From: Waddliaceae bacterium
Lineage (GTDB): Bacteria; Chlamydiota; Chlamydiia; Chlamydiales; SLFE01
Assembly: GCA_963783885.1 (NCBI GenBank)
Contig: CAWAPJ010000029.1
Coordinates: 32,001-96,000 of the forward strand
DNA length: 64,000 bases
Direction of reading: 5' to 3'
A program made the translations under genes and the position numbers. The first letter of the stretch is position 1. Each line of letters starts with the position of its first letter. The notes under the pieces are model-generated. The model had not been told where the DNA came from. It saw only the letters and a program-made list of their open reading frames with translations, and did no database searches. Shown one piece after another: positions 19,851-38,218 of the stretch.

Positions 19851-21404
19851 ATGTCGGGTTCGACAGAAGCAGAGTTTTCCGGATGGCGATCGTTTTTTTG
19901 GCCCATCCACAGTCATGAGCTTCGCAAGCTCCTCCCCATGCTGTTGATCTTATTTCTCATCACCTTCAATTACAACGTTCTTAGGACGATGAAAGACACT
20001 CTCGTCGTCGCTACCGGCAAGCATTCCGGTGCCGAAGTCATTCCGTTTATCAAACTCTGGATTATGTTTCCCTGCTCCATTTTGCTTACATATCTGTTTA
20101 CCAAGCTCACCAACAAATTGTCTCGAGAGTTTGTTTTCTATTCCATGATGTCGGTCTTTTTGATCTTCTTTGCTTTTTTTATCTTTGTGCTCTATCCCTG
20201 CAGAGAATTCATTCATCCGCACGAGTTTGCCGACAAGCTCCAAATGTTTCTGCCCGTGGGAATGAAGGGTTTTGTTGCGATGATCCGCAACTGGTCATTT
20301 TCAAGCTTTTATGTCATGTCCGAGCTTTGGGGGAATATTGTCCTCTTTTTACTTTTCTGGGGATTTGCCAATCAGATCACTCATCTTGGCGAGGCGAAAC
20401 GCTTCTACGCGATTTTGGGAATCGGAACAAACGTCTCGGGAATCATTGCGGGTCAATTCGCCGTGCAGATATCAAAAACCGAAATGATTTCGTTTATTCC
20501 CTACGGCAGCCGCCCATGGGACCAGCAAATGCTGGTTCTAGTCTCAATCGTTTTGATTTGCGGCATAGCCGCGATGGCCGTTTTCCGATGGATGCACACA
20601 CATGTTCTCGATACTGAAACCGGTGAGGCAATTGAGACGTCGAATGGAGAGGTCAAAGGGCGGATGTCGATGCGAGAAAACTTTTCTTATCTGTTTAAGT
20701 CGCGCTATCTGATGTATATTGCCGTCATCACAATAGCCTATAACATCATTATCAATCTCGTAGAAGTTCTGTGGAAACACCAGGTTCATGAACTCTATTC
20801 TAATCCAAGCGAGTACAATCTTTACATGAACCAGGTCATGGTGATTATCGGCATTCTGGCAACCATCACATCCTTTTTGGGCACCGGCAACCTAATACGA
20901 AGGTGCGGCTGGACCAAAACAGCTATGCTCACGCCGATTATCCTGCTGCTGACAAGCGTTTTCTTTTTTGGGCTGTTTTTTGCAAAAGAGTACTTTCTCG
21001 ATGGGGCTCAGGTTCTCTTTGGAACAGCGCCCATCGCCCTTGTCGTTTTTTTCGGCACCCTTCAAAATGTTTTGAGCCGGGGTGCCAAGTACACAATTTA
21101 TGATGCCACGAAAGAAGTGGCTTTTATCCCTCTAAGCTCAGAATCGAAAATTAAAGGCAAAGCCGCAATCGATGGAGTTTGCAATCGACTCGGCAAATCC
21201 GGGGGATCGGCGATTCATCAGGTCTTGCTGATTTCCTTCTCTACACTCTCTTTAAGCGCCCCTTACGTTGCCGGTTTTCTCCTCGCGATCATAGGGATTT
21301 GGATGGGAGCCGTATCCTCTCTTGGGAAACAATTCAACTTCCTGACCACCGATGAGGTCAAAACCCCTGCCGATTCAGACGCCGAACCTGTCTTACAAGG
21401 ATAA
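19851..21404 (+). CDS. Nucleotide transporter, NTT/TLC (ATP/ADP translocase) family
   Basis: FNYNVLRTMKD, YVMSELWG, FWGFANQIT, KGKAAIDGVCNRLGKSGG. Confidence 0.93.
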   Translation: MSGSTEAEFSGWRSFFWPIHSHELRKLLPMLLILFLITFNYNVLRTMKDTLVVATGKHSGAEVIPFIKLWIMFPCSILLTYLFTKLTNKLSREFVFYSMMSVFLIFFAFFIFVLYPCREFIHPHEFADKLQMFLPVGMKGFVAMIRNWSFSSFYVMSELWGNIVLFLLFWGFANQITHLGEAKRFYAILGIGTNVSGIIAGQFAVQISKTEMISFIPYGSRPWDQQMLVLVSIVLICGIAAMAVFRWMHTHVLDTETGEAIETSNGEVKGRMSMRENFSYLFKSRYLMYIAVITIAYNIIINLVEVLWKHQVHELYSNPSEYNLYMNQVMVIIGILATITSFLGTGNLIRRCGWTKTAMLTPIILLLTSVFFFGLFFAKEYFLDGAQVLFGTAPIALVVFFGTLQNVLSRGAKYTIYDATKEVAFIPLSSESKIKGKAAIDGVCNRLGKSGGSAIHQVLLISFSTLSLSAPYVAGFLLAIIGIWMGAVSSLGKQFNFLTTDEVKTPADSDAEPVLQG

Positions 21405-21510: not shown

Positions 21511-23091
21511 ATGAAAACAACAAAACAAGCGGAGTTTGGGCCTTTCAGGTCAATATTTTGGCCCTTTTACCGGCGTGAGCTAAAATTGGTCATTCCCATG
21601 ATGCTTATGCTCTTTCTTACCTGCTTTAATTATAGCATCCTTCGCAATCTGAAAGACGTTCTTGTGGTTACCGCGAAATCGTCGGGGGGAGCCGTAATTC
21701 CCTTCATCAAGGTCTGGGCTATGCTTCCCATGGCTGTACTTTCCGCCTATATTTTTACTAAGCTCTCCAACCGATACAGCCAGGAAAAAGTATACTACAT
21801 CATGGTTTGGGGATTTCTCATCGCCTATGTGACATTCGGCTTTATCCTCTATCCGATGCGCGAGAGCCTGGAACTTGTCGGGGTTGCCAGGTTTTTGGAA
21901 TCGATCCTTCCGACCGGGGCGCATGGCTTCATATCCATGATCAGGCATTGGTCCTTTACAATGTTTTACGTGATGTGCGAGCTTTGGTCCAGTATTGTTC
22001 TAACGGTTCTTTTTTGGGGTTTTGCCAATGAAATCACCAAAGTAAAAGATGCCCGCCGCCATTATAGCATTTTGGGCGTTGTCTCCAGTATTTCCGCCGT
22101 TATCGCCGGCTTATTGGGCCGCTATTTTTCGAGTCTTGAATACAACCCCAGCCTCCCTTTTGGCAGCGACGCCTTTGAACAGACCATTATGGAAGTTGTT
22201 TTGGCTGTCTTTGTTGTCGGCCTTTTCATTATGGGGTCGTTTTGGTGGCTCAATAAATATGCCCTTAATTCACCCGAGTATATTGACCTTCACCGATCAA
22301 ACCGCGCCTTCAGAATGAGGAAGAAGCAATCTTTAAGAGACAGCTTTACCTTCCTTGCCAAATCCAAATATCTCATCTGTATCGCCGTTATCGTTGTAGC
22401 GTATAATTTGTCGATCAACCTTGTCGAGGTTGTCTGGAAAGATCAATTAAAGAATCTTTATCCCAACCGGGATGACTACTTCATTTATTTGAGCAATGTC
22501 ACAATTCTTTTGGGAATCATTTCTTCTGCCGCTTCTTTTTTCATCGGGAAAATCATCGGACGGATCGGGTGGACAAAAACCGCCTTGATCACTCCCCTGG
22601 TCCTTTTGGCGACCAGCCTGGGATTCTTTGGATTCCTATTTTACCGTCAGTTCATGGTGGATACGACGATTTATTTTATGGGAATGACGCCGCTGGCTTT
22701 AGCCGTCATGTTCGGCGGGGCTCAAAACTGCCTTAGCAAGTCGGCCAAATATTCAATTTTCGATTCGACAAAAGAAATGGTCTTTATTCCACTGGACCAC
22801 GAGACCAAGCTCAAAGGGAAAGCCGCCATAGACGGAGTAGGTTCACGCCTGGGCAAGTCCGGAGGTGCAGTCGTCCATCAGGCGCTGCTTCTGATCTTTT
22901 CGTCGCTCACACAAAGCGCCCCTTATGTTGCCACTATCTTGATGGGAGTTATTTTTGTCTGGTTTGGGGCGGTCAAAGTACTCGGCCTGGAATTTGCCAA
23001 AATGGCTCTTGAGAGAAATGACACTTCTGAAGGGATCACTGACCAGATTAAATCCAAACCTCAGCTTGCAAAGTTAAGTCCTGAAAGCTAA
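21511..23091 (+). CDS. Second nucleotide transporter, NTT/TLC family (tandem paralog)
   Basis: FNYSILRNLKD, FWGFANEIT, KGKAAIDGVGSRLGKSGG. Confidence 0.93.
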   Translation: MKTTKQAEFGPFRSIFWPFYRRELKLVIPMMLMLFLTCFNYSILRNLKDVLVVTAKSSGGAVIPFIKVWAMLPMAVLSAYIFTKLSNRYSQEKVYYIMVWGFLIAYVTFGFILYPMRESLELVGVARFLESILPTGAHGFISMIRHWSFTMFYVMCELWSSIVLTVLFWGFANEITKVKDARRHYSILGVVSSISAVIAGLLGRYFSSLEYNPSLPFGSDAFEQTIMEVVLAVFVVGLFIMGSFWWLNKYALNSPEYIDLHRSNRAFRMRKKQSLRDSFTFLAKSKYLICIAVIVVAYNLSINLVEVVWKDQLKNLYPNRDDYFIYLSNVTILLGIISSAASFFIGKIIGRIGWTKTALITPLVLLATSLGFFGFLFYRQFMVDTTIYFMGMTPLALAVMFGGAQNCLSKSAKYSIFDSTKEMVFIPLDHETKLKGKAAIDGVGSRLGKSGGAVVHQALLLIFSSLTQSAPYVATILMGVIFVWFGAVKVLGLEFAKMALERNDTSEGITDQIKSKPQLAKLSPES

Positions 23092-23230: not shown

Positions 23231-23644
23231 ATGAAAAAGCGAAATTTGAAAAAAATCGCCTTGGCAGGGCTTGCCAGCGGAATTTGCATGATTAATTCGG
23301 CAAACGCCGGATATATTAATGCCGATGTGAATAACAATTCTATGAACCATCAGGCTCCTATGACATCGCAGCAGCTAAGATCGCAGCTGAATCCGGCAAC
23401 TCAAAAACTTTACGATACTATGAGTTCAGAAGGAAAAGCTTTAGCCCTTAAACTTGCGAATCAAAGCTGCAAGGGCCAAAACAGTTGTAAAGGACTCAAT
23501 TCCTGTAAAACCGATCATAACTCCTGCGCAGGCCAGGGCGGCTGCAAAGGAACGTCCAAAGGACCTTTCCAAGATAAGAATATGGCTGTAAAAACTGCTG
23601 CTAAGCATATGGCCGAAAAAAGAAACGGAGCCGTGGAACAGTAA
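23231..23644 (+). CDS. Secreted Cys-rich bufferin (BufA2)-like precursor, distal paralog of 34370-34810
   Basis: Signal peptide MKKRNLKKIALAGLASG...ANA; core CKGQNSCKGLNSCKTDHNSCAGQGGCKG; AAGGAG RBS. Confidence 0.8.
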   Translation: MKKRNLKKIALAGLASGICMINSANAGYINADVNNNSMNHQAPMTSQQLRSQLNPATQKLYDTMSSEGKALALKLANQSCKGQNSCKGLNSCKTDHNSCAGQGGCKGTSKGPFQDKNMAVKTAAKHMAEKRNGAVEQ

Positions 23645-31408: not shown

Positions 31409-32590
31409 TTATTTGGATAGAACGCAGGCAAAGCCCCCATCCCAACCATCTTTGTTCGGTAATATGACCTTATGACACAAGCAATTTCCCCACAATCTTT
31501 CTTCTTTGACAAGGTTTTGATTCTCGCAGGGCAGGATGCTGCACGTCATATAGAAAACTCTGCCATGGGGTGTTAATAAATCGAGGGCATGCCTTAAGAG
31601 CTTTTTTTGAAGCGAGCGGAGTTCTTCGACGGCACAAGAGTTGAGCCTCCAACGGGCTTCAGGCCGTTTGTTGAGCACTCCCGAATTGGTGCAGGGAGCA
31701 TCGACAATGATAAGATCATAACGATCATCAGTTGAAAACGTTTCTCCACGGCTGATTGAATAGTCGGCATTGATGCCGTATTTTTCAAAATTTTCCCGTA
31801 TTTTATTCATCTTGCCTTCCGAAACATCATTGACAGTGAGTTTTGCCTGGGGATAAAGATCATGGGCAAGCAGGGCCTTTCCCCCGGGAGAGGCTGCGAG
31901 GTCTAAAATGGTCTTGGGAGGTTTTGTCAAAAAATTAGCCATTTTCCCCATGAGAAGAACTGGGGTGATGTTCTGAATATAAATATCCGGAGATTCGGAA
32001 TAGTCTTGAGGGTTTTCGATGGGGAAAACTTTTAAAGGAGAATCGCTGCCCCGCCTTAGGCGGCCCATCGTTTTGCCGGGGGTATTGCCCGCTTCCAAGG
32101 TCGCAATTGTCGTTTGAAGGCCGTATTCTACGAGAAGCTGCTGAACATAAAATTTGGTATAGGAATAACGGATGCTGAGGCTTTCGGCATCACTTCCCTG
32201 AGGCAGTCTGAACTCTGTATGGGGGATCTTCTTCAGCACGGCGTTTAAAAAGGAGGCAAACCGGACATGGCACTCTTTTTTTGCCAGCTCGACGCTCTCG
32301 TTGACAATGGCGTGCAGAGGAACTTTGTCCATTTCAAGCGCTTGATAGAGAGCAATATAAAGTAAAGCCCTCTCTTTGCGTTTCAACTTCAGGGTGTCTG
32401 AGAGTTGTTTGGCGTAGTGGTCGAGAGTTTTTTGTTTTCTCATAGCGCCGTTGGCGATTTCTTTTGCGAAACGAAGATCTTTCGAGGAAGGGGCGTCGGA
32501 TTGTTGCCAGGTCTCAAGAAATGAGGAGATAAACTGCTTTTCCCTCATAGATCCGAGAAGAGCTTTGTAGGCCGCTTCTCTTGCATTCAT
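31409..32590 (-). CDS. rsmB: 16S rRNA m5C methyltransferase (Sun/Fmu) with NusB-like N-terminus
   Basis: AIVNESVELAK and FLNAVLK (NusB-like); LDLAASPGGK, DAPCTNSG, YMTCS. Confidence 0.88.
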   Translation of the reverse strand: MNAREAAYKALLGSMREKQFISSFLETWQQSDAPSSKDLRFAKEIANGAMRKQKTLDHYAKQLSDTLKLKRKERALLYIALYQALEMDKVPLHAIVNESVELAKKECHVRFASFLNAVLKKIPHTEFRLPQGSDAESLSIRYSYTKFYVQQLLVEYGLQTTIATLEAGNTPGKTMGRLRRGSDSPLKVFPIENPQDYSESPDIYIQNITPVLLMGKMANFLTKPPKTILDLAASPGGKALLAHDLYPQAKLTVNDVSEGKMNKIRENFEKYGINADYSISRGETFSTDDRYDLIIVDAPCTNSGVLNKRPEARWRLNSCAVEELRSLQKKLLRHALDLLTPHGRVFYMTCSILPCENQNLVKEERLWGNCLCHKVILPNKDGWDGGFACVLSK

Positions 32591-33474
32591 TTTTTAGTGA
32601 TCCATTCTCTGACCACCCATTTTTGAAACCATTCCGACAGCTTGCCAGCCGAATCCTCGATCCATTCTTCATGCTCTTCTTCAAGAACCGCGCACGCTTC
32701 GTCGATAGTCGTACCCTGCTTGAAAAGATTGAGAAGAAATAATTCCGGTTCATCAATTTCTTCCCAGCACATGTTGTGTCTAAAGTTGCGGAAAAGGCAA
32801 AATGTATACCGTTTTTCTTTGTCAAGTTTCGGGAAGTCATGCTCTTCCCAATGTTCGGGCTTCTCTTCTAGCATCTCATCGCGGAACTGAAAGAGGTGAT
32901 AATTAAGGGGGAAAAGATAAATATGGGGCTGGAGGACGAGACGTTTATTGAGAAGGGAAGAGAACTCATCCGAATTAGGGAGGTCTTTTTGACTCAACGG
33001 TGGATTGTGGGGCATTAAAAAGCCGTCATTGTAGGCCAGGTCGATTGCTGCGGCGTCATAGACGAATGACTTGTCGTTGTTATGATAGTTGTTTTGGATC
33101 CAGTCAGGGAGCCGGCTCCCAAGCGGGTTTAGCGACCAGCTATCGGGAGGATGGTCCAGCAGGTAGGGCATTGCGATTGTTTGATTAAAATCGAAGTAGC
33201 CGAACATGCGTGTGACTAGAGGAAAAATATCGTGCAGAATCGACAGCAGGCGCCACCAATATTGCTGGTTGTAGATCTCGATTCTTCTATGGGATTCCAA
33301 TGTAGGGCTGGGGGTGATAAACTGCTTGGCCTCTTCTTTCATCGGCTGGCCGGAAGGCGAGAGGGGATTCATGCGGCTGTTTTCATCGATGGGGCGCGCA
33401 ATAATATTGCCAAACCACTGCTGGGTCAACTTCAGAGTGTGGGGAACTGTAGAATCAAAGATTACGTCAGACAT
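32587..33474 (-). CDS. DUF2063/HvfC/BufC-like MNIO partner protein
   Basis: RIEIYNQQYWWRLLSILHDIFP...YLLDHPP..WSL..LG..LP; overlaps the DUF692 gene. Confidence 0.85.
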   Translation of the reverse strand: MSDVIFDSTVPHTLKLTQQWFGNIIARPIDENSRMNPLSPSGQPMKEEAKQFITPSPTLESHRRIEIYNQQYWWRLLSILHDIFPLVTRMFGYFDFNQTIAMPYLLDHPPDSWSLNPLGSRLPDWIQNNYHNNDKSFVYDAAAIDLAYNDGFLMPHNPPLSQKDLPNSDEFSSLLNKRLVLQPHIYLFPLNYHLFQFRDEMLEEKPEHWEEHDFPKLDKEKRYTFCLFRNFRHNMCWEEIDEPELFLLNLFKQGTTIDEACAVLEEEHEEWIEDSAGKLSEWFQKWVVREWITKK

Positions 33475-34331
33475 TTTTTCAAAGGGGTTTTGCAGTTTTT
33501 TTCGATTGCTTTCTGAAATTTTTTCGCTTTCAGCGCTTCGTCCCAGGTTTCCTGAAAGCTCACAAAGTTATCGTCCCATTCAAGAAGAGTTGAGACGCCC
33601 CCTGTTCTTGGATAAACTTCAGCATAGATGTCCCAAACCTCATTGCGGACGTAATTATCATGGGTATCGAGAACATAGTCTCCGTGATCGGTGTGTCCGG
33701 CGATATGGATCTGGATAACGCGTTCCATCGGGATATTGTTATAATAATCTTTCGGGACAAATCCGTGGTTTCTGCTGGAAACGTAAATATTATTGACATC
33801 GAGCATCATGTAAATGTCGGCTTTTTCCACGATCGCCGAATAAAATTCCCATTCGGGCATTTCATCATCTTTGAAAGCGACATATGAAGAGAGATTTTCC
33901 AGAGCAAAGGGAAGCTCCAGATAATCCTGAACAATGCGCGCTCTTTCAGCGACATAATTGATCACTTCCCGGGTATAGGGCAGGGGGAGAAGGTCGTGAA
34001 AATGTGCCCCGGCCAGCTTTCCCCAGCAAAGGTGGTCGGATATCCAAGGGGTTTTGGTTTTAAAGGACAGTTTTTTCAGTCTTTTCAGGTAGTCGAAGTC
34101 GAGGGGATCGGGGCTCCCTATGGCTAGGGCGACGCCATGTTGGACCACGGGATACATTTCGAGGATCCTTTCGAGATTTTCGATGGGTTTTCCTCCGTCG
34201 ACCATGAAATTTTCGCTGATAATTTCGAACCAGTCAACATCCGGTTTATCCCGGAAGATGTCTTCGTAATGGGGAATACGAAGCCCTAGGCCGATACCTA
34301 GATTGGGAATCATTTTGTTTGTTTTAGCCAT
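33462..34331 (-). CDS. DUF692 multinuclear non-heme iron oxidative enzyme (MNIO; BufB/HvfB/MbnB family)
   Basis: GLGLR.PH, WFEIISENFM, HGV, SDHLCW, DLLPLP, LENLSSY, LDVNNIYV, IHIAGH, DTH, LEWD. Confidence 0.95.
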   Translation of the reverse strand: MAKTNKMIPNLGIGLGLRIPHYEDIFRDKPDVDWFEIISENFMVDGGKPIENLERILEMYPVVQHGVALAIGSPDPLDFDYLKRLKKLSFKTKTPWISDHLCWGKLAGAHFHDLLPLPYTREVINYVAERARIVQDYLELPFALENLSSYVAFKDDEMPEWEFYSAIVEKADIYMMLDVNNIYVSSRNHGFVPKDYYNNIPMERVIQIHIAGHTDHGDYVLDTHDNYVRNEVWDIYAEVYPRTGGVSTLLEWDDNFVSFQETWDEALKAKKFQKAIEKNCKTPLKKCLT

Positions 34332-34369
34332 GTCAAAAGCCTATATTAAAACAGCAATAGGAAAAGAGT

Positions 34370-34810
34370 TCAATCTGTTTGAGTTTTTTCCCTTTTTTCA
34401 GCCATTTTTTTTGCGACGAGTTTGACTGCGAGATTTTTGTCTCCGATCGCGCATTTTGTTGTTCCTTTGCATTCGCCTTTGCCGGCACAATCATTGTCTT
34501 CGGTTTTGCAGGCATTGAGTCCTTTGCACTCGTTAGCACCATTGCACCGTCTGCTGGCAACTTTCAGGGCCAGTTTTTTCCCTTCCGGCGAGAGAGACTC
34601 ATAAAGCTCTCGTCCTTTTCTATTCAGATTGAGGAACAGTTCCTGTTCGCTCATTAAATAATACCCCTCGTTTTCCGAATTGGGATCCTCTTCATATTCG
34701 TCGGCTTTACCGGCCGATGTTTCTTTTTCCTGCCCTTGCAGCGTAGGAGTCATGAATAGTCCCGAGGCTATGCCGATAATGGCCAGCTTTCCAAGATCTC
34801 TTTTTTTCAT
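34370..34810 (-). CDS. Secreted Cys-rich bufferin (BufA2)-like precursor
   Basis: ATG at 34810 with AGGAG RBS; signal MKKRDLGKLAIIGIASG; core CNGANECKGLNACKTEDNDCAGKGECKGTTKC; directly upstream of DUF692. Confidence 0.85.
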   Translation of the reverse strand: MKKRDLGKLAIIGIASGLFMTPTLQGQEKETSAGKADEYEEDPNSENEGYYLMSEQELFLNLNRKGRELYESLSPEGKKLALKVASRRCNGANECKGLNACKTEDNDCAGKGECKGTTKCAIGDKNLAVKLVAKKMAEKREKTQTD

Positions 34811-34830
34811 AACACTTCTCCTTGCCAGAT

Positions 34831-34864
34831 AAAATATGCGGCCTTTGAAAGACCGCATATTTTG
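34831..34864 (-). terminator. Intercistronic hairpin between the two precursor genes
   Basis: AAAATATGCGG...CCGCATATTTT stem, extendable through TCTTT/AAAGG with a G-U pair. Confidence 0.7.
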
Positions 34865-34900
34865 GGTTAATAGAAAAACTAAATCCTTCCCTTATGGGGA

Positions 34901-35362
34901 TTACAGGCGATATCCATAGGAACCGTTGGATCCTCCGCAGCTTCCCCTGTCTTTGCCATTGTTATGGTTGCCGCAGCTTCCCCTGTCTTTGCCATTGTTA
35001 TTGTTGTTGCTGTTGTCGTGATTTTGATATTGGTTGTCCGAATTGTCATGATTTTGGTCATTGTTTCCATTGTCATGATTTTGATCATGGCCGTTCGAAT
35101 AATTATAATTAGTTTGGCTGTAATTTCCATTGGCGTTGTCATAATCTCCGTTATAGCGTCTTGTGCGTCCGTTATTTGTGTTGTCTGCATGTGGGCGGCA
35201 TTTTTGGGGACATCCCCCTTTTGCCATTTGCTGGTTGGTTTCATTTCCGGGAATAAAATGCGATGTGTCGGCGCCTGCCTCACCGGAAACAACAAGTCCT
35301 GCAGCCATTCCCATCAATGCAAGTTTTGTGAGTCTGCTTTTTGAAAAATCTCGTTTTTTCAT
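34901..35362 (-). CDS. Secreted Asn/His/Asp-rich precursor with a GGCPQKC motif and two RGSCG motifs (putative second MNIO substrate)
   Basis: AAGGAG RBS; signal MKKRDFSKSRLTKLALMGMAAG; QNHDN repeats; 31-nt perfect repeat with 36-nt period at 34935 and 34971. Confidence 0.75.
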   Translation of the reverse strand: MKKRDFSKSRLTKLALMGMAAGLVVSGEAGADTSHFIPGNETNQQMAKGGCPQKCRPHADNTNNGRTRRYNGDYDNANGNYSQTNYNYSNGHDQNHDNGNNDQNHDNSDNQYQNHDNSNNNNNGKDRGSCGNHNNGKDRGSCGGSNGSYGYRL

Positions 35363-35398
35363 TTCGAATCTCCTTTAAGTTTTGTGATTCATAAATGA

Positions 35399-35427
35399 AC
35401 CATACTAAAGAAAAATTTATTTGTCTA
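35399..35427 (-). promoter_or_regulatory. Putative sigma70/66 promoter of the MNIO operon
   Basis: TAGACA (35427-35422), 17 nt, TATGGT (35404-35399); TTCAT-AA-ATGAA palindrome directly downstream. Confidence 0.5.
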
Positions 35428-35617: not shown

Positions 35618-36034
35618 ATGAGTTTATCTATTCAAAAAAGCGATGCTTTTGGTTTTCATACATATAATCAATTTAAAGGAAAGCTGATTTCTATTTCTAA
35701 CTCCATGGATGTTAACAATCCAATTCTGCAAGAGGCTGAAAAGAAATTTCAAAAAATTAACCTCGTAAAGAATCTCGTGACCGCCGCAGGCTATATTCCT
35801 GTAGTAGGAACTATCGCGGCTATTGCAAAGCTTGTTTTGATCAATAAGGCTGAAAAAGAAATGTCTAAAGATTCTCGTGGGAGACGATTGAAGCCGTTAG
35901 TACAAAACTACTTCACCGGGCAAAAAATCAGAAGCGGGATTGAGTTGACCTCTCTTGGCTTTCTTTTGCTTATTCCAGACATAATTTTTACTATAGGACG
36001 CAATATTGGGAAAAAGCCCGCTGAAGCTATATAG
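35618..36034 (+). CDS. Hypothetical protein with two hydrophobic segments
   Basis: 138 aa; GYIPVVGTIAAIAKL and LGFLLLIPDIIFTIG. Confidence 0.65.
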   Translation: MSLSIQKSDAFGFHTYNQFKGKLISISNSMDVNNPILQEAEKKFQKINLVKNLVTAAGYIPVVGTIAAIAKLVLINKAEKEMSKDSRGRRLKPLVQNYFTGQKIRSGIELTSLGFLLLIPDIIFTIGRNIGKKPAEAI

Positions 36035-38218
36035 TTAGCTGGAGCTGCCTTGTTCGGTTTCCTTTACAAGAAATTGGCATTGGGTTAAAAGAGGGCGATT
36101 TTGCAAATGCAAATCATCAGAATACAATAATATATCCTTTGCCCAGATTTTAGTCATTTCGTCTTTTTCTTGGATTTTTTTCATTAAATACTGATGACAA
36201 TCTTCCCGAAGGCTTGGGTCGACGGTGAAGATATTGCACCAATAGAACTGTTCCTCTACCCAGCACCTTGGGTCATTGAAGAGCTTGAAGTAATCATCGT
36301 ATTTTTCTGGTGGAATGAATTTGGCTTTACCCATCATCTCTTGTTTATTGGGGGATGATAATTCGATAGTTTTTTGGAGGAGATGAGGATAAGCTTTTTC
36401 TATGACAGTGCTGCCATAACATTTTAAGTCGCCAGTTGTGAACTTGACAGCATGAAGAAGTTCCTCAGAATGACGAATTTTTATACCTTTTAAGACTTTA
36501 AGTAATGGATCCAGGGTAAACGCAAAAGAAACGCGGCTAAGATAGTAAAAAATTTTTGGAACAGAGTCTGTATCGTCTAACAAGTCGAAAAGAGGAAAGC
36601 AATTTTCTGCAAGGGATCGGTATGCGAAAAGCTTCGCCGCACTAAATACAAAAGGGAGCTGATAATCATAAATGACATAGTTCTCCAAAAAAACAGAGAC
36701 AATTGTAATTATATCTGCCAGCTTAGGATGATTTTCAGTTTGTCGGTAAGCATTAAGCAAGTCGGCAATTTCGATTCTTTCTGATTCTCCAAGTTTGGAG
36801 AAAGTCTTCAGAAACTCATAAAAAGACTCCAATGTTTTAGTATTCGCAAGGGCACATTTAACAATTTCATATTGTTGATGCATCGGCAGTTGTAATAGAG
36901 CATTGAGATACTGTTCAAGGGGTCTTCCTCCTGGGAAGTAGAACCGCCCAAGTATCGTGGTTGCTTCCGGATTGATCTTGCCGGCCAGCCGTTTCATAAG
37001 ATCTAAAGTATTCATGATCTGAGAAGCTGTTTTACATCGGCCTGCAAAACAGGCAGCTAACTTGATCACCTCTAGAGGGTAGTCGATCAGGTTTTTGAAA
37101 ATGGAGCGTATGTCAACGCTTTCATGAATCATAAATGATCGGACAGCTTCAGAAAATCGAGGTCTGTCTTTTAAGGGTACTTTTCGAAAATCTTCGATCA
37201 AAGAGGCGGATTGACTATAAATCGAAAAGCATCTGCTTTGCTCCCTTTCTTCGGGAGGAAATTTTTCGATGGTTTGGAGAAGGTGGCAAATATACCATCC
37301 GTCCATAGAGTTATACAAAAGTTCGGCGGTATGCACCACAACATCCTCAGGATCGACTTCGCTTTTTAACTGATTAATGACTGTCATAATTTCAGCGGCA
37401 TCTCTTCCCGGCAAACGGTCATGGATCAGTTGTGATGCCAGGGCAAGTGTCTTTCGCCTTGTTTCTTTCGGCAATTTCACGGCTGCCTCGAGAAGGAAGA
37501 CGACATCGCCTCCACGCATCTTCTCACGAATGACCTTCGAAGTACTAATTTCTGAGATGACTTTTCGATTCTCCAATTGGTCGACAGCTGCCATGATTTT
37601 AGCGACATCGCTTCCAGACATACATTTATGGGTGAGTTGAGATGTCAGAGCAAGTGTATTTTTCCTTGTGCCTCTCGGCAATTTCAAGGCTGCTTTGAGA
37701 ATTTCTTTGACATCCTCTCCATTCATGTTCTGATGAATGACAGGCCGAATAGCGATTGCAGCATTGACGTTTTCTCCCGACTGGTAACCAAAAAGAATAT
37801 TCAGATTTAGAAAAAAAGATTGATAATTCCAGTGATAGTTCGGCATGTCACGAACTGCGTGGATGATAGTTTCTAAATCACCCCGTGTCATGCACATTGA
37901 GATTAATGGAGCGGCAAGATCAGCAATGGCTTTGTCTGGATTCCTTCGGTGAGACAGTAAAATCATCAACGAAAGTTGATTAATTTTAATGGTTAACTCG
38001 CATTTCTTAATTTTAGTGATGTTTCGGTTAATCAGTAGAAGGCAGTCGACATGTTCCGGGGTGAAGCTTATAGGATGATTATTTATCCATTGATCAAGTT
38101 TGTCGAAAATGCTTTGAAAATCGTTTTGAGTTTGTAGAATTCGGCTAAAATCTTCGATTTGAGTAGCTGTCGATAGTTGAAGAAGTGTTGTACCAAAATC
38201 CATGCCGGAAGTGTACAT
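36035..38218 (-). CDS. Hypothetical helical-repeat protein, paralog of 27456-28835
   Basis: 727 aa; about 35-aa units MNGEDVKEIL / MSGSDVAKIM / MRGGDVVFLL / LPGRDAAEIM. Confidence 0.7.
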   Translation of the reverse strand: MYTSGMDFGTTLLQLSTATQIEDFSRILQTQNDFQSIFDKLDQWINNHPISFTPEHVDCLLLINRNITKIKKCELTIKINQLSLMILLSHRRNPDKAIADLAAPLISMCMTRGDLETIIHAVRDMPNYHWNYQSFFLNLNILFGYQSGENVNAAIAIRPVIHQNMNGEDVKEILKAALKLPRGTRKNTLALTSQLTHKCMSGSDVAKIMAAVDQLENRKVISEISTSKVIREKMRGGDVVFLLEAAVKLPKETRRKTLALASQLIHDRLPGRDAAEIMTVINQLKSEVDPEDVVVHTAELLYNSMDGWYICHLLQTIEKFPPEEREQSRCFSIYSQSASLIEDFRKVPLKDRPRFSEAVRSFMIHESVDIRSIFKNLIDYPLEVIKLAACFAGRCKTASQIMNTLDLMKRLAGKINPEATTILGRFYFPGGRPLEQYLNALLQLPMHQQYEIVKCALANTKTLESFYEFLKTFSKLGESERIEIADLLNAYRQTENHPKLADIITIVSVFLENYVIYDYQLPFVFSAAKLFAYRSLAENCFPLFDLLDDTDSVPKIFYYLSRVSFAFTLDPLLKVLKGIKIRHSEELLHAVKFTTGDLKCYGSTVIEKAYPHLLQKTIELSSPNKQEMMGKAKFIPPEKYDDYFKLFNDPRCWVEEQFYWCNIFTVDPSLREDCHQYLMKKIQEKDEMTKIWAKDILLYSDDLHLQNRPLLTQCQFLVKETEQGSSS

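Follow-up and report, generated by a model that had tools for sequence, protein, structure and literature searches.

We analysed a 64,000-nt window (forward positions 32,001–96,000) of contig CAWAPJ010000029.1 from Waddliaceae bacterium GCA_963783885.1, in which an earlier note, made from the sequence alone, had described an operon for ribosomally made peptides that are modified after translation (RiPPs). The operon comprises five closely packed genes on the minus strand (35427–31409), encoding, in this order, the candidate precursors A and B, an oxidative enzyme dependent on multinuclear non-heme iron (MNIO), a DUF2063 partner protein and RsmB (Table 1). All the parts described in the note were found at the positions given there. 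Its assignment of the locus to MNIO/DUF2063 operons of the bufferin type is supported by the matches to PF05114 and PF09836, the score on the BufB model and the fold of the partner protein, and its claim of two architecturally different exported precursors was likewise borne out. Additionally, a third candidate precursor, missing from the note and denoted here as B2, is encoded 11 kb from the operon. Bufferins are copper-binding peptides that are exported by Sec and modified by an MNIO so that they bear 5-thiooxazoles, and their maturation partner is a DUF2063 protein (PMC11626156). This modification is also found in the EGKCG peptides of Haemophilus, Neisseria and Fontimonas, and captophorin has been proposed as a class name (PMC13097082).

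Table 1. Features of the operon and of the unlinked precursor gene in the 64,000-nt window.
Feature	Position	Strand	Evidence
Promoter-like site TAGACA-17-TATGGT, upstream of precursor A	35399–35427	-	9/12 consensus match
Precursor A, 153 aa	34901–35362	-	Open reading frame, AGGAG, signal peptide, A-module profile
Signal peptide of A	35270–35362	-	By eye and first-28-residue profile
15-bp stem-loop between A and B, with AUCU after it; resembles a terminator or attenuator	34831–34863	-	Folding
Precursor B, 146 aa, six-Cys core	34370–34810	-	NF050166 BufA2, below cut-off
Signal peptide of B	34733–34810	-	By eye and first-28-residue profile
MNIO enzyme, BufB type, 289 aa	33462–34331	-	PF05114, NF050167
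DUF2063 partner protein, PME type 1, 295 aa	32587–33474	-	PF09836, fold match to 3DEE
rsmB, 16S rRNA m5C methyltransferase; outside the RiPP chemistry	31409–32590	-	Library profile matches
Second B-type precursor B2, 137 aa, five-Cys core	23231–23644	+	B-protein profile, E 6.9e-43
Signal peptide of B2	23231–23311	+	By eye and first-28-residue profile

The MNIO matches PF05114 (MbnB_TglH_ChrH) with 343.6 bits (gathering threshold 25) over profile positions 1–262 of 263, and its 319.9 bits on the BufB equivalog model NF050167 exceed the cut-off of 310. On the HvfB model it reaches 242.9 bits, below the cut-off of 360. Alignment to 3BWW, an enzyme of the Lys-Cys type, pairs LLEWDDNF with LLERDFNF and GLGLRI with GLGYRR, placing an Asp after the catalytic Asp where 3BWW has Phe, and an Ile where 3BWW has its second Arg. 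The MNIOs of Cys-Lys captophorins are described as having Asp in place of this Phe and as having lost the second Arg of GLxxRR (PMC13097082). The chlamydial enzyme shares both features with that subgroup, the correspondence to FonB numbering being our reading of the alignment. The motif in question reads E251-W-D253-D254, and among 30 chlamydial MNIO sequences D253 was invariant and D254 at least 90% conserved; overall, the chlamydial MNIOs are 70–94% conserved across the phylum. By this Cys-Lys/Asp rule, the enzyme would be tuned to precursor B.

The partner protein scores 45.8 bits on PF09836 (DUF2063; cut-off 27.2), so that the profile searches place both enzymes above the cut-offs of the families named in the earlier note, DUF692 (PF05114) and DUF2063. 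Its scores on NGO1945_C (20.8 bits, cut-off 27) and on the NCBIfam model HvfC (23.2 bits, cut-off 142) fall below threshold, and comparison of its sequence with solved structures returned a chance match only (E 0.61). The AlphaFold2 model of the partner, with a mean confidence (pLDDT) of 92.6, has as its top Foldseek match in the PDB the structure 3DEE (NGO1945; E 3.9e-6, target TM 0.70), followed by TglI. The DUF2063 domain, the NGO1945-like fold and the position of the gene directly after that of the MNIO place it in PME type 1.

Precursor B carries its six cysteines at positions 89, 95, 101, 108, 114 and 120, with Cys-Lys dyads, and the translated open reading frame (ORF) confirms the previously noted core spacing CxGxNxCKGxNxCKTxxNxCAGxGxCKG..C. 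The protein has the architecture of a BufA2 precursor, namely a Sec signal peptide, six cysteines and a gene directly before that of the MNIO. The comparison with the BufA2 model proposed in the earlier note gave a match (NF050166, E 2.5e-7) that, at 30.8 bits, remains below the family cut-off of 60. B2 reaches 31.1 bits on the same model, and both alignments are confined to the Cys core (profile positions 27/28–62 of 79). Eight chlamydial homologues of B score 24.7–41.3 bits, and a related 12-Cys chlamydial lipoprotein exceeds the cut-off with 71.9 bits. An alignment of 17 homologues showed five of the six core cysteines of B to be invariant, C120 being replaced in the five-Cys variants. In the AlphaFold2 model of B, helices at about residues 50–88 and 125–145 (pLDDT 81–95) flank the Cys loop, which is modelled at pLDDT 42–54; the B profile found no match among solved structures. 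From its sequence, B can be classed as a divergent bufferin precursor of the BufA2 type.

B2 was identified when all reading frames of the genome were scanned with a profile built from chlamydial B proteins. Its core is the five-Cys, CKGTSKGPF variant, and its gene is unlinked to the operon, standing after two genes for TLC ATP/ADP transporters. A signal-peptide match lies at a similar distance from the MNIO gene in G379, a genome of the same genus. One group of chlamydial genomes (loci L026, L027, L029, L031, L035, L043 and L013) encodes no upstream precursor other than a B-type protein, the signal peptide of which closes with a lipobox-like LxGGC, L013 encoding a duplicated 12-Cys form; these proteins are probably membrane-anchored bufferins.

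Precursor A is built differently. Its ATG is preceded by AGGAG, and residues 1–31 form a Sec-type signal peptide, MKKRDFSKSRLTKLALMGMAAGLVVSGEAGA, that ends in AGA|D and is followed by DTSH. The motifs listed in the earlier note, GGCPQKC, an Asn/His/Asp tract and two RGSCG, are all present in the translated ORF. C51 and C55 lie in GGCPQKC, C130 and C142 lie in two GKDRGSCG repeats, and the spacer is rich in Asn, Gly, Asp and His; the 122 residues beyond position 31 include 30 Asn, 17 Gly, 12 Asp and 7 His. The note had also placed A in an xxSCG/KCG class resembling HvfA, and this did not hold: A has no EGKCG repeats, matches no HvfA/Buf_EGKCG family model and has no Pfam match, nor any NCBIfam match even at E ≤ 1. 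Full-length A found two matches among 5.8 billion protein clusters, one of them A itself, and a look-up in the ESM Atlas gave a best score of 0.76, under the useful range. The A protein of the related locus L001 is 74% identical, differing by one in-frame 33-nt indel and by changes that are mostly silent in the first 60 codons.

Comparison with other chlamydiae revealed the family to which A belongs. Its design was read from the DNA upstream of MNIO genes at 21 loci of named metagenome-assembled genomes (MAGs) and at 30 loci of further species genomes. It consists of an MKKxDLKKLALxGLAxG-like signal peptide, 8–15 polar residues, and a motif of a hydrophobic residue followed by Leu-Ala-x-Gly-Cys-x(2–6)-Cys, often then Gly. 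The remainder is a spacer without fixed sequence, usually with more cysteines in Gly/Ser contexts (GSCG type) near the C-terminus; the A-type protein of locus L051, for instance, has five RGGSCNGSNTANGQ repeats. The signal peptide and the Cys motifs are all that A-type members keep as the rest diverges. A lipobox reading of Leu-Ala-x-Gly-Cys was considered and rejected, since 10–15 polar residues separate the cysteine from the end of an already complete signal peptide, and position -1 is Lys or His in several members. The 51-position profile of this A module, built from alignment A7, matches A with E 4.4e-16. Run against the 5.8-billion-cluster collection, it recovered 38 proteins, none with a Pfam domain and with 'hypothetical protein' as the sole name given. 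On these sequence comparisons, A is a member of a recurrent chlamydial family and not a chance ORF.

To place these findings in the phylum, 401 Chlamydiota genomes were sampled, and an MNIO was present in 139 of them. The enzyme was found in all four genomes of the family of the window and in 45 of the 46 genomes of family f5, and in none of the 30 genomes of family f4, which are about 1.1 Mb in size; environmental, amoeba-associated lineages thus appear to keep the MNIO, and the most reduced lineage to lack it. One closed chlamydial genome (G303) holds five MNIO matches, one with an internal TGA. In the same 401 genomes, the A-module profile produced 88 matches reaching the Cys pair, of which 72 lie 62–2875 nt upstream of an MNIO gene on the same strand, and 59 of the 61 genomes with an A-module match have an MNIO. 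The synteny survey suggested in the earlier note ties the A module to the MNIO, the module lying within 3 kb upstream of the enzyme gene in those 72 cases.

A fixed rule was applied to classify the 43 non-redundant loci with enough upstream DNA. An A gene followed by a B gene was found at 13 loci, including the one studied here, and a B + A + B order at one, so that the tandem arrangement occurs at 14 of the 43 loci. A is fused to a B core at three loci and to a B scaffold without the Cys core at five (A-tail proteins). B alone occurs at 11 loci, 'A' alone or A + A at seven, and neither type at three. On inspection by eye, the rule seems to have assigned 'A' wrongly at L011, which has two ORFs of 41 and 55 aa, and at L039, whose core is degenerate; the loci L012, L014 and L018 count as atypical. 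The count excludes L047 (identical to L005), L040 (identical to L016), L021 (enzyme gene cut by the contig end), and six loci with less than 900 nt of upstream DNA (L002, L003, L006, L007, L042 and L054). At L018 (3094–4895), a 442-aa A-type ORF overlaps, in a different frame, a 223-aa ORF that ends in a B core, which points either to a fusion gene with a frameshift or to a mistake in the assembly.

Several observations further connect A with B and with the enzymes. The A module is fused to a B domain in several lineages. The A-tail proteins inspected hold exactly two cysteines, both in the N-terminal motif; at L009, L046, L048, L052 and P0004–P0039, the B helical scaffold (ALAIQLASQDSYRDKNLAVKEAQ) is kept, the Cys core is lost and only the two cysteines of the A motif remain. 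Five genomes that encode only A or A-tail proteins are 94–99% complete (two of them in two contigs), and the B profile found no Cys core anywhere in them; its matches there were limited to the scaffold, devoid of Cys, of the A-tail proteins next to the MNIO. The A type is thus the only Cys-bearing candidate found in these five genomes, in which the enzyme pair is fully conserved.

A, B and B2 have similar signal peptides, which also resemble the ones found on MNIO precursors of other chlamydiae. When residues 1–28 of A-type proteins encoded in other genomes were made into a profile, A, B2 and B ranked at the top of the 31,290 frames of this genome (E 1.2e-6, 1.6e-6 and 7.8e-5), the next frame having an E-value of 0.4. 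Reciprocally, a profile of B-type signal peptides placed B2, B and A as the top three in this genome. Since the same three proteins head both rankings, they have a common signal peptide unlike that of other exported proteins encoded here. Such a likeness would fit either common descent or a role as a leader for modification, and the segment could combine export and leader functions. The signal peptide of a bufferin has, for comparison, been reported to be dispensable for modification in E. coli (PMC11626156).

The expression signals upstream and within the operon were also examined. The promoter proposed in the earlier note matches the consensus at a mere 9 of 12 positions, and a scan of the region returned 19 sites of this kind where 7.1 were expected, which makes the site weak when taken alone. 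Its conservation speaks for it: the 65 nt before the ATG of A are identical at L001, a locus 94% related, though the coding sequence differs, and the TAGACA (-35-like) and an AT-rich -10 are kept at L004. A palindrome after the -10, TTCAT-TT-ATGAA, was considered as an operator and rejected, as it is not kept at L004. The hairpin between A and B was confirmed as a 15-bp stem. It lies in the 91-nt spacer; the 101-nt spacer sequence that was folded gave -28.2 kcal/mol (z -2.8), two of 200 shuffled sequences folding as well, and a terminator scan of the region did not list the hairpin. It is kept at L001, with loop changes and one A-U to G-U change. Moreover, a strong hairpin occupies the A-B spacer at all 14 tandem loci, with unrelated sequences and, in several cases, a classic U-run. 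We infer that A may be overproduced in this arrangement, with transcription reading through into the genes for B and the enzymes. A search of sequencing runs for this DNA listed 12 DNA metagenome runs and no RNA run.

Downstream of the hairpin the genes are tightly coupled. B and the MNIO gene are separated by 36 nt, the MNIO and DUF2063 genes overlap by 13 nt, and rsmB is probably co-transcribed with the partner gene because its start overlaps the stop of that gene by 4 nt. Several related loci (e.g. L001, L002 and L004) have an ORF with an rsmB-like N-terminal sequence after the partner gene. As the earlier note had stated, the operon contains no DoxX (BufD) gene and no extracytoplasmic function sigma or anti-sigma gene by ORF and profile-library scans; two DoxX genes lie elsewhere in the genome, on other contigs. 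The MNIO of the operon is the sole one in this 2.16-Mb, 89%-complete genome. The nearest related locus comes from a Waddliaceae MAG, and the window holds two tandem TLC ATP/ADP transporter genes on the plus strand (19851–21404 and 21511–23091; PF03219, 620.6 and 599.3 bits). Transporters of this family are a hallmark of obligate intracellular bacteria, and the host is thus supported as a chlamydia-like intracellular bacterium, in agreement with the probable intracellular symbiont proposed before. The operon is flanked by a 727-aa ORF (36035–38218, minus strand) and a 138-aa ORF (35618–36034, plus strand), neither with a Pfam or NCBIfam match.

Among characterised systems, the closest in layout is the bufferin 2 cluster bufA2-bufB2-bufC2 of Caulobacter vibrioides (PMC11626156), described with the same order of precursor, MNIO and DUF2063 partner and with no DoxX gene. 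B shares with that precursor the Sec signal peptide and the core of six cysteines with Cys-Lys dyads, and the chlamydial MNIO passes the BufB cut-off. Unlike it, B is about twice as long, has a helical scaffold on both sides of the Cys loop and attains 30.8 of the required 60 bits. The chlamydial operon also lacks evident SigF/NrsF control and runs into rsmB, and the genome adds an unrelated precursor gene upstream and an unlinked third one. HvfA/oxazolin, fontiphorin and gonophorin are described as exported Cys-Gly repeat peptides that are for the most part unstructured and are matured by an MNIO together with a DUF2063 protein (PMC11252979, PMC13097082). A resembles them in having Cys followed by Gly in two short repeats; however, its repeats span 12 residues (GKDRGSCGxxNN) rather than the 17-residue units with two EGKCG motifs reported for that class, contain no Lys-Cys dyad and give no HvfA-type match. 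The chlamydial MNIO differs from the enzymes of these captophorins in its score below the HvfB cut-off and in the Asp and Ile that replace the Phe and the second Arg of 3BWW. For the 'CxxxxC' precursor family (PMC12452194), the comparison is one of motif descriptions: A has C-x3-C, and its relatives range from C-x2 to C-x6. Clusters of that family are said to contain often a Lactamase_B_2 gene (PMC12452194), and none is present at the chlamydial operon. The chlamydial case also resembles the bufferin clusters with tandem precursors and the unclassified small Cys-containing ORFs of the same census, whose Fig. S3 and Table S2 lists may overlap with the A type (PMC12452194).

Taking these data together, we consider it rather probable that the locus is a bufferin/captophorin-type locus of a Waddliaceae-like chlamydia, with A representing a second, chlamydia-wide class of substrate. 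The earlier suggestion that one enzyme pair serves both precursors holds in so far as the comparative data tie A to the MNIO; the modification of A itself, which we regard as likely, is something we infer, because the MNIO falls below the HvfB cut-off and carries the Asp of the Cys-Lys type. Several findings weigh against this interpretation. The motifs of A are Cys-Pro, Lys-Cys-Arg and Ser-Cys-Gly, without a Cys-Lys dyad, yet the MNIO has the Cys-Lys-type Asp, and the E-W-D-D/E motif is kept by all chlamydial MNIOs examined, including those with only A-type neighbours. With FonBC, the one enzyme studied in this respect and itself of the Lys-Cys type, a Pro adjacent to Cys is reported to have blocked processing (PMC13097082), and A has Cys-Pro. 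The helical scaffold kept by A-tail proteins is missing from the A protein of the window, which bears on how it would be recruited, and the score of B is half of the BufA2 cut-off. As to the linkage, part of it arises by construction, because the genes used to build the profile were neighbours of the MNIO in about 20 of the 401 genomes; the remainder of each genome was searched with the same profile and gave almost no matches. Finally, 16 of the 88 A-module matches lie away from an MNIO. Nine of these are on other contigs of fragmented assemblies, two are in a 370-contig genome without an MNIO match and one is a weak match in family f4, whereas the four in two nearly closed genomes are truly apart from the MNIO, by 220 kb in one genome and on a separate contig in the other.

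These points lend some weight to an alternative that we nevertheless regard as unlikely, in which only B and B2 are substrates and A is a secreted low-complexity peptide with another job, for example metal binding by its unmodified Cys, His and Asp residues or service as an envelope or periplasmic filler protein, kept nearby for co-regulation. The Cys-Lys signature of the MNIO, present in all chlamydial enzymes whatever precursor lies upstream, would agree with it, as would the absence of a scaffold from A, its Cys-Pro, its very fast evolution and the terminator-like hairpin that sets its gene apart from the remaining genes. However, five near-complete genomes would then have conserved the enzyme pair without any Cys-bearing candidate substrate, and it would be left to explain that A retains just its Cys motifs and signal peptide amid the divergence and that it is fused to B at several loci. 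More radically, A might not be a gene at all but an open frame in low-complexity DNA rich in Asn codons, as two overlapping frames (138 and 126 aa) are open too and A matches no known family. We consider this very improbable, since A has a ribosome-binding site and a signal peptide, differs from its L001 counterpart by an in-frame indel and mostly silent changes behind a conserved upstream region, and shares its module with 61 genomes, so that the conservation data already contradict it. A further possibility concerns the function: thiooxazole peptides may be made and serve chlamydiae in a role other than copper buffering, related to another metal, to redox stress or to the disulfide-rich envelope of the infectious stage. 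The operon has no copper gene, DoxX gene or metal-responsive regulator and is coupled to the housekeeping gene rsmB, and some MNIO clusters have been linked to other metals (PMC12452194). Against this, every characterised member of this enzyme and partner group is reported to bind copper or to protect against it (PMC11626156, PMC13097082), and the window holds no pointer to another role; we therefore judge this option improbable.

If A is indeed a second substrate, the system could operate as follows. The MNIO iron enzyme and its DUF2063 partner would work in the cytoplasm on Sec-targeted precursors, whose cysteines they would oxidise to 5-thiooxazoles. The modified peptides would then be exported, lose their signal peptides and bind copper in the periplasm. 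B and B2 would act as divergent BufA2-type substrates in which a helical scaffold presents a loop of six or five cysteines. A, in contrast, would be a disordered peptide whose working parts are the Cys pair soon after the signal peptide and the C-terminal Gly-Ser-Cys-Gly motifs, and each Cys pair might give rise to one bis-thiooxazole metal site. Turnover in EGKCG captophorins is reported to need two Cys sites (PMC13097082). Through the hairpin after its gene, A would be produced in larger amounts than B and the enzymes. More broadly, and more tentatively, we propose that environmental chlamydiae may possess an MNIO substrate class of their own, consisting of disordered, fast-evolving secreted peptides in which nothing but the Cys pair and the GSCG-type motifs would be fixed and that are handled by an enzyme with a Cys-Lys signature and recruited through the signal peptide as leader. 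This class might be the sole substrate in Parachlamydiaceae-like genomes, and here a single enzyme pair might serve three precursors of two classes as a periplasmic copper buffer against copper poisoning by amoebae.

Bufferins and captophorins are now counted among the largest groups of RiPPs. The earlier note had called the operon the best candidate in the window for an undescribed system. That description does not stand for the kind of system, because the published MNIO census already mentions bufferin clusters with precursor genes in tandem (PMC12452194); what we describe is a system of a known kind, bufferin/captophorin, with an undescribed chlamydial precursor class. The same census places about 4,000 MNIOs in a bufferin mega-cluster as enzymes whose neighbouring precursors fit no family. 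Its table lists five Parachlamydiales genomes, each with one MNIO, one DUF2063 protein and zero Buf1, Buf2 or EGKCG precursors, and its figure data include two of the four chlamydial MNIO accessions searched for, only under 'PME-type 1'; its main text makes no mention of chlamydiae (PMC12452194). Full-text searches combining DUF692 with Chlamydia, and bufferin or captophorin with chlamydial names, returned no paper on chlamydial precursors, these searches covering neither the supplementary PDF of PMC12452194 nor the data sets that belong to PMC13097082. Four elements appear new: the definition of chlamydial precursors, the A-type Cys-pair class with its fusions, the common signal peptide and the conserved hairpin.

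Thousands of MNIOs, all the chlamydial entries among them, have no recognised precursor in the published census (PMC12452194). For the chlamydiae, these precursors can now be defined as a divergent form of the BufA2 type and a Cys-pair type that is as yet unnamed, the latter free, duplicated or fused, both of which constitute testable substrates. The chlamydial enzymes would provide a natural test of the substrate-selectivity rule, since modification of the A type, if true, would make the Cys-Lys/Asp rule as proposed too narrow. A metal-handling trait in the biology of the chlamydiae would follow.

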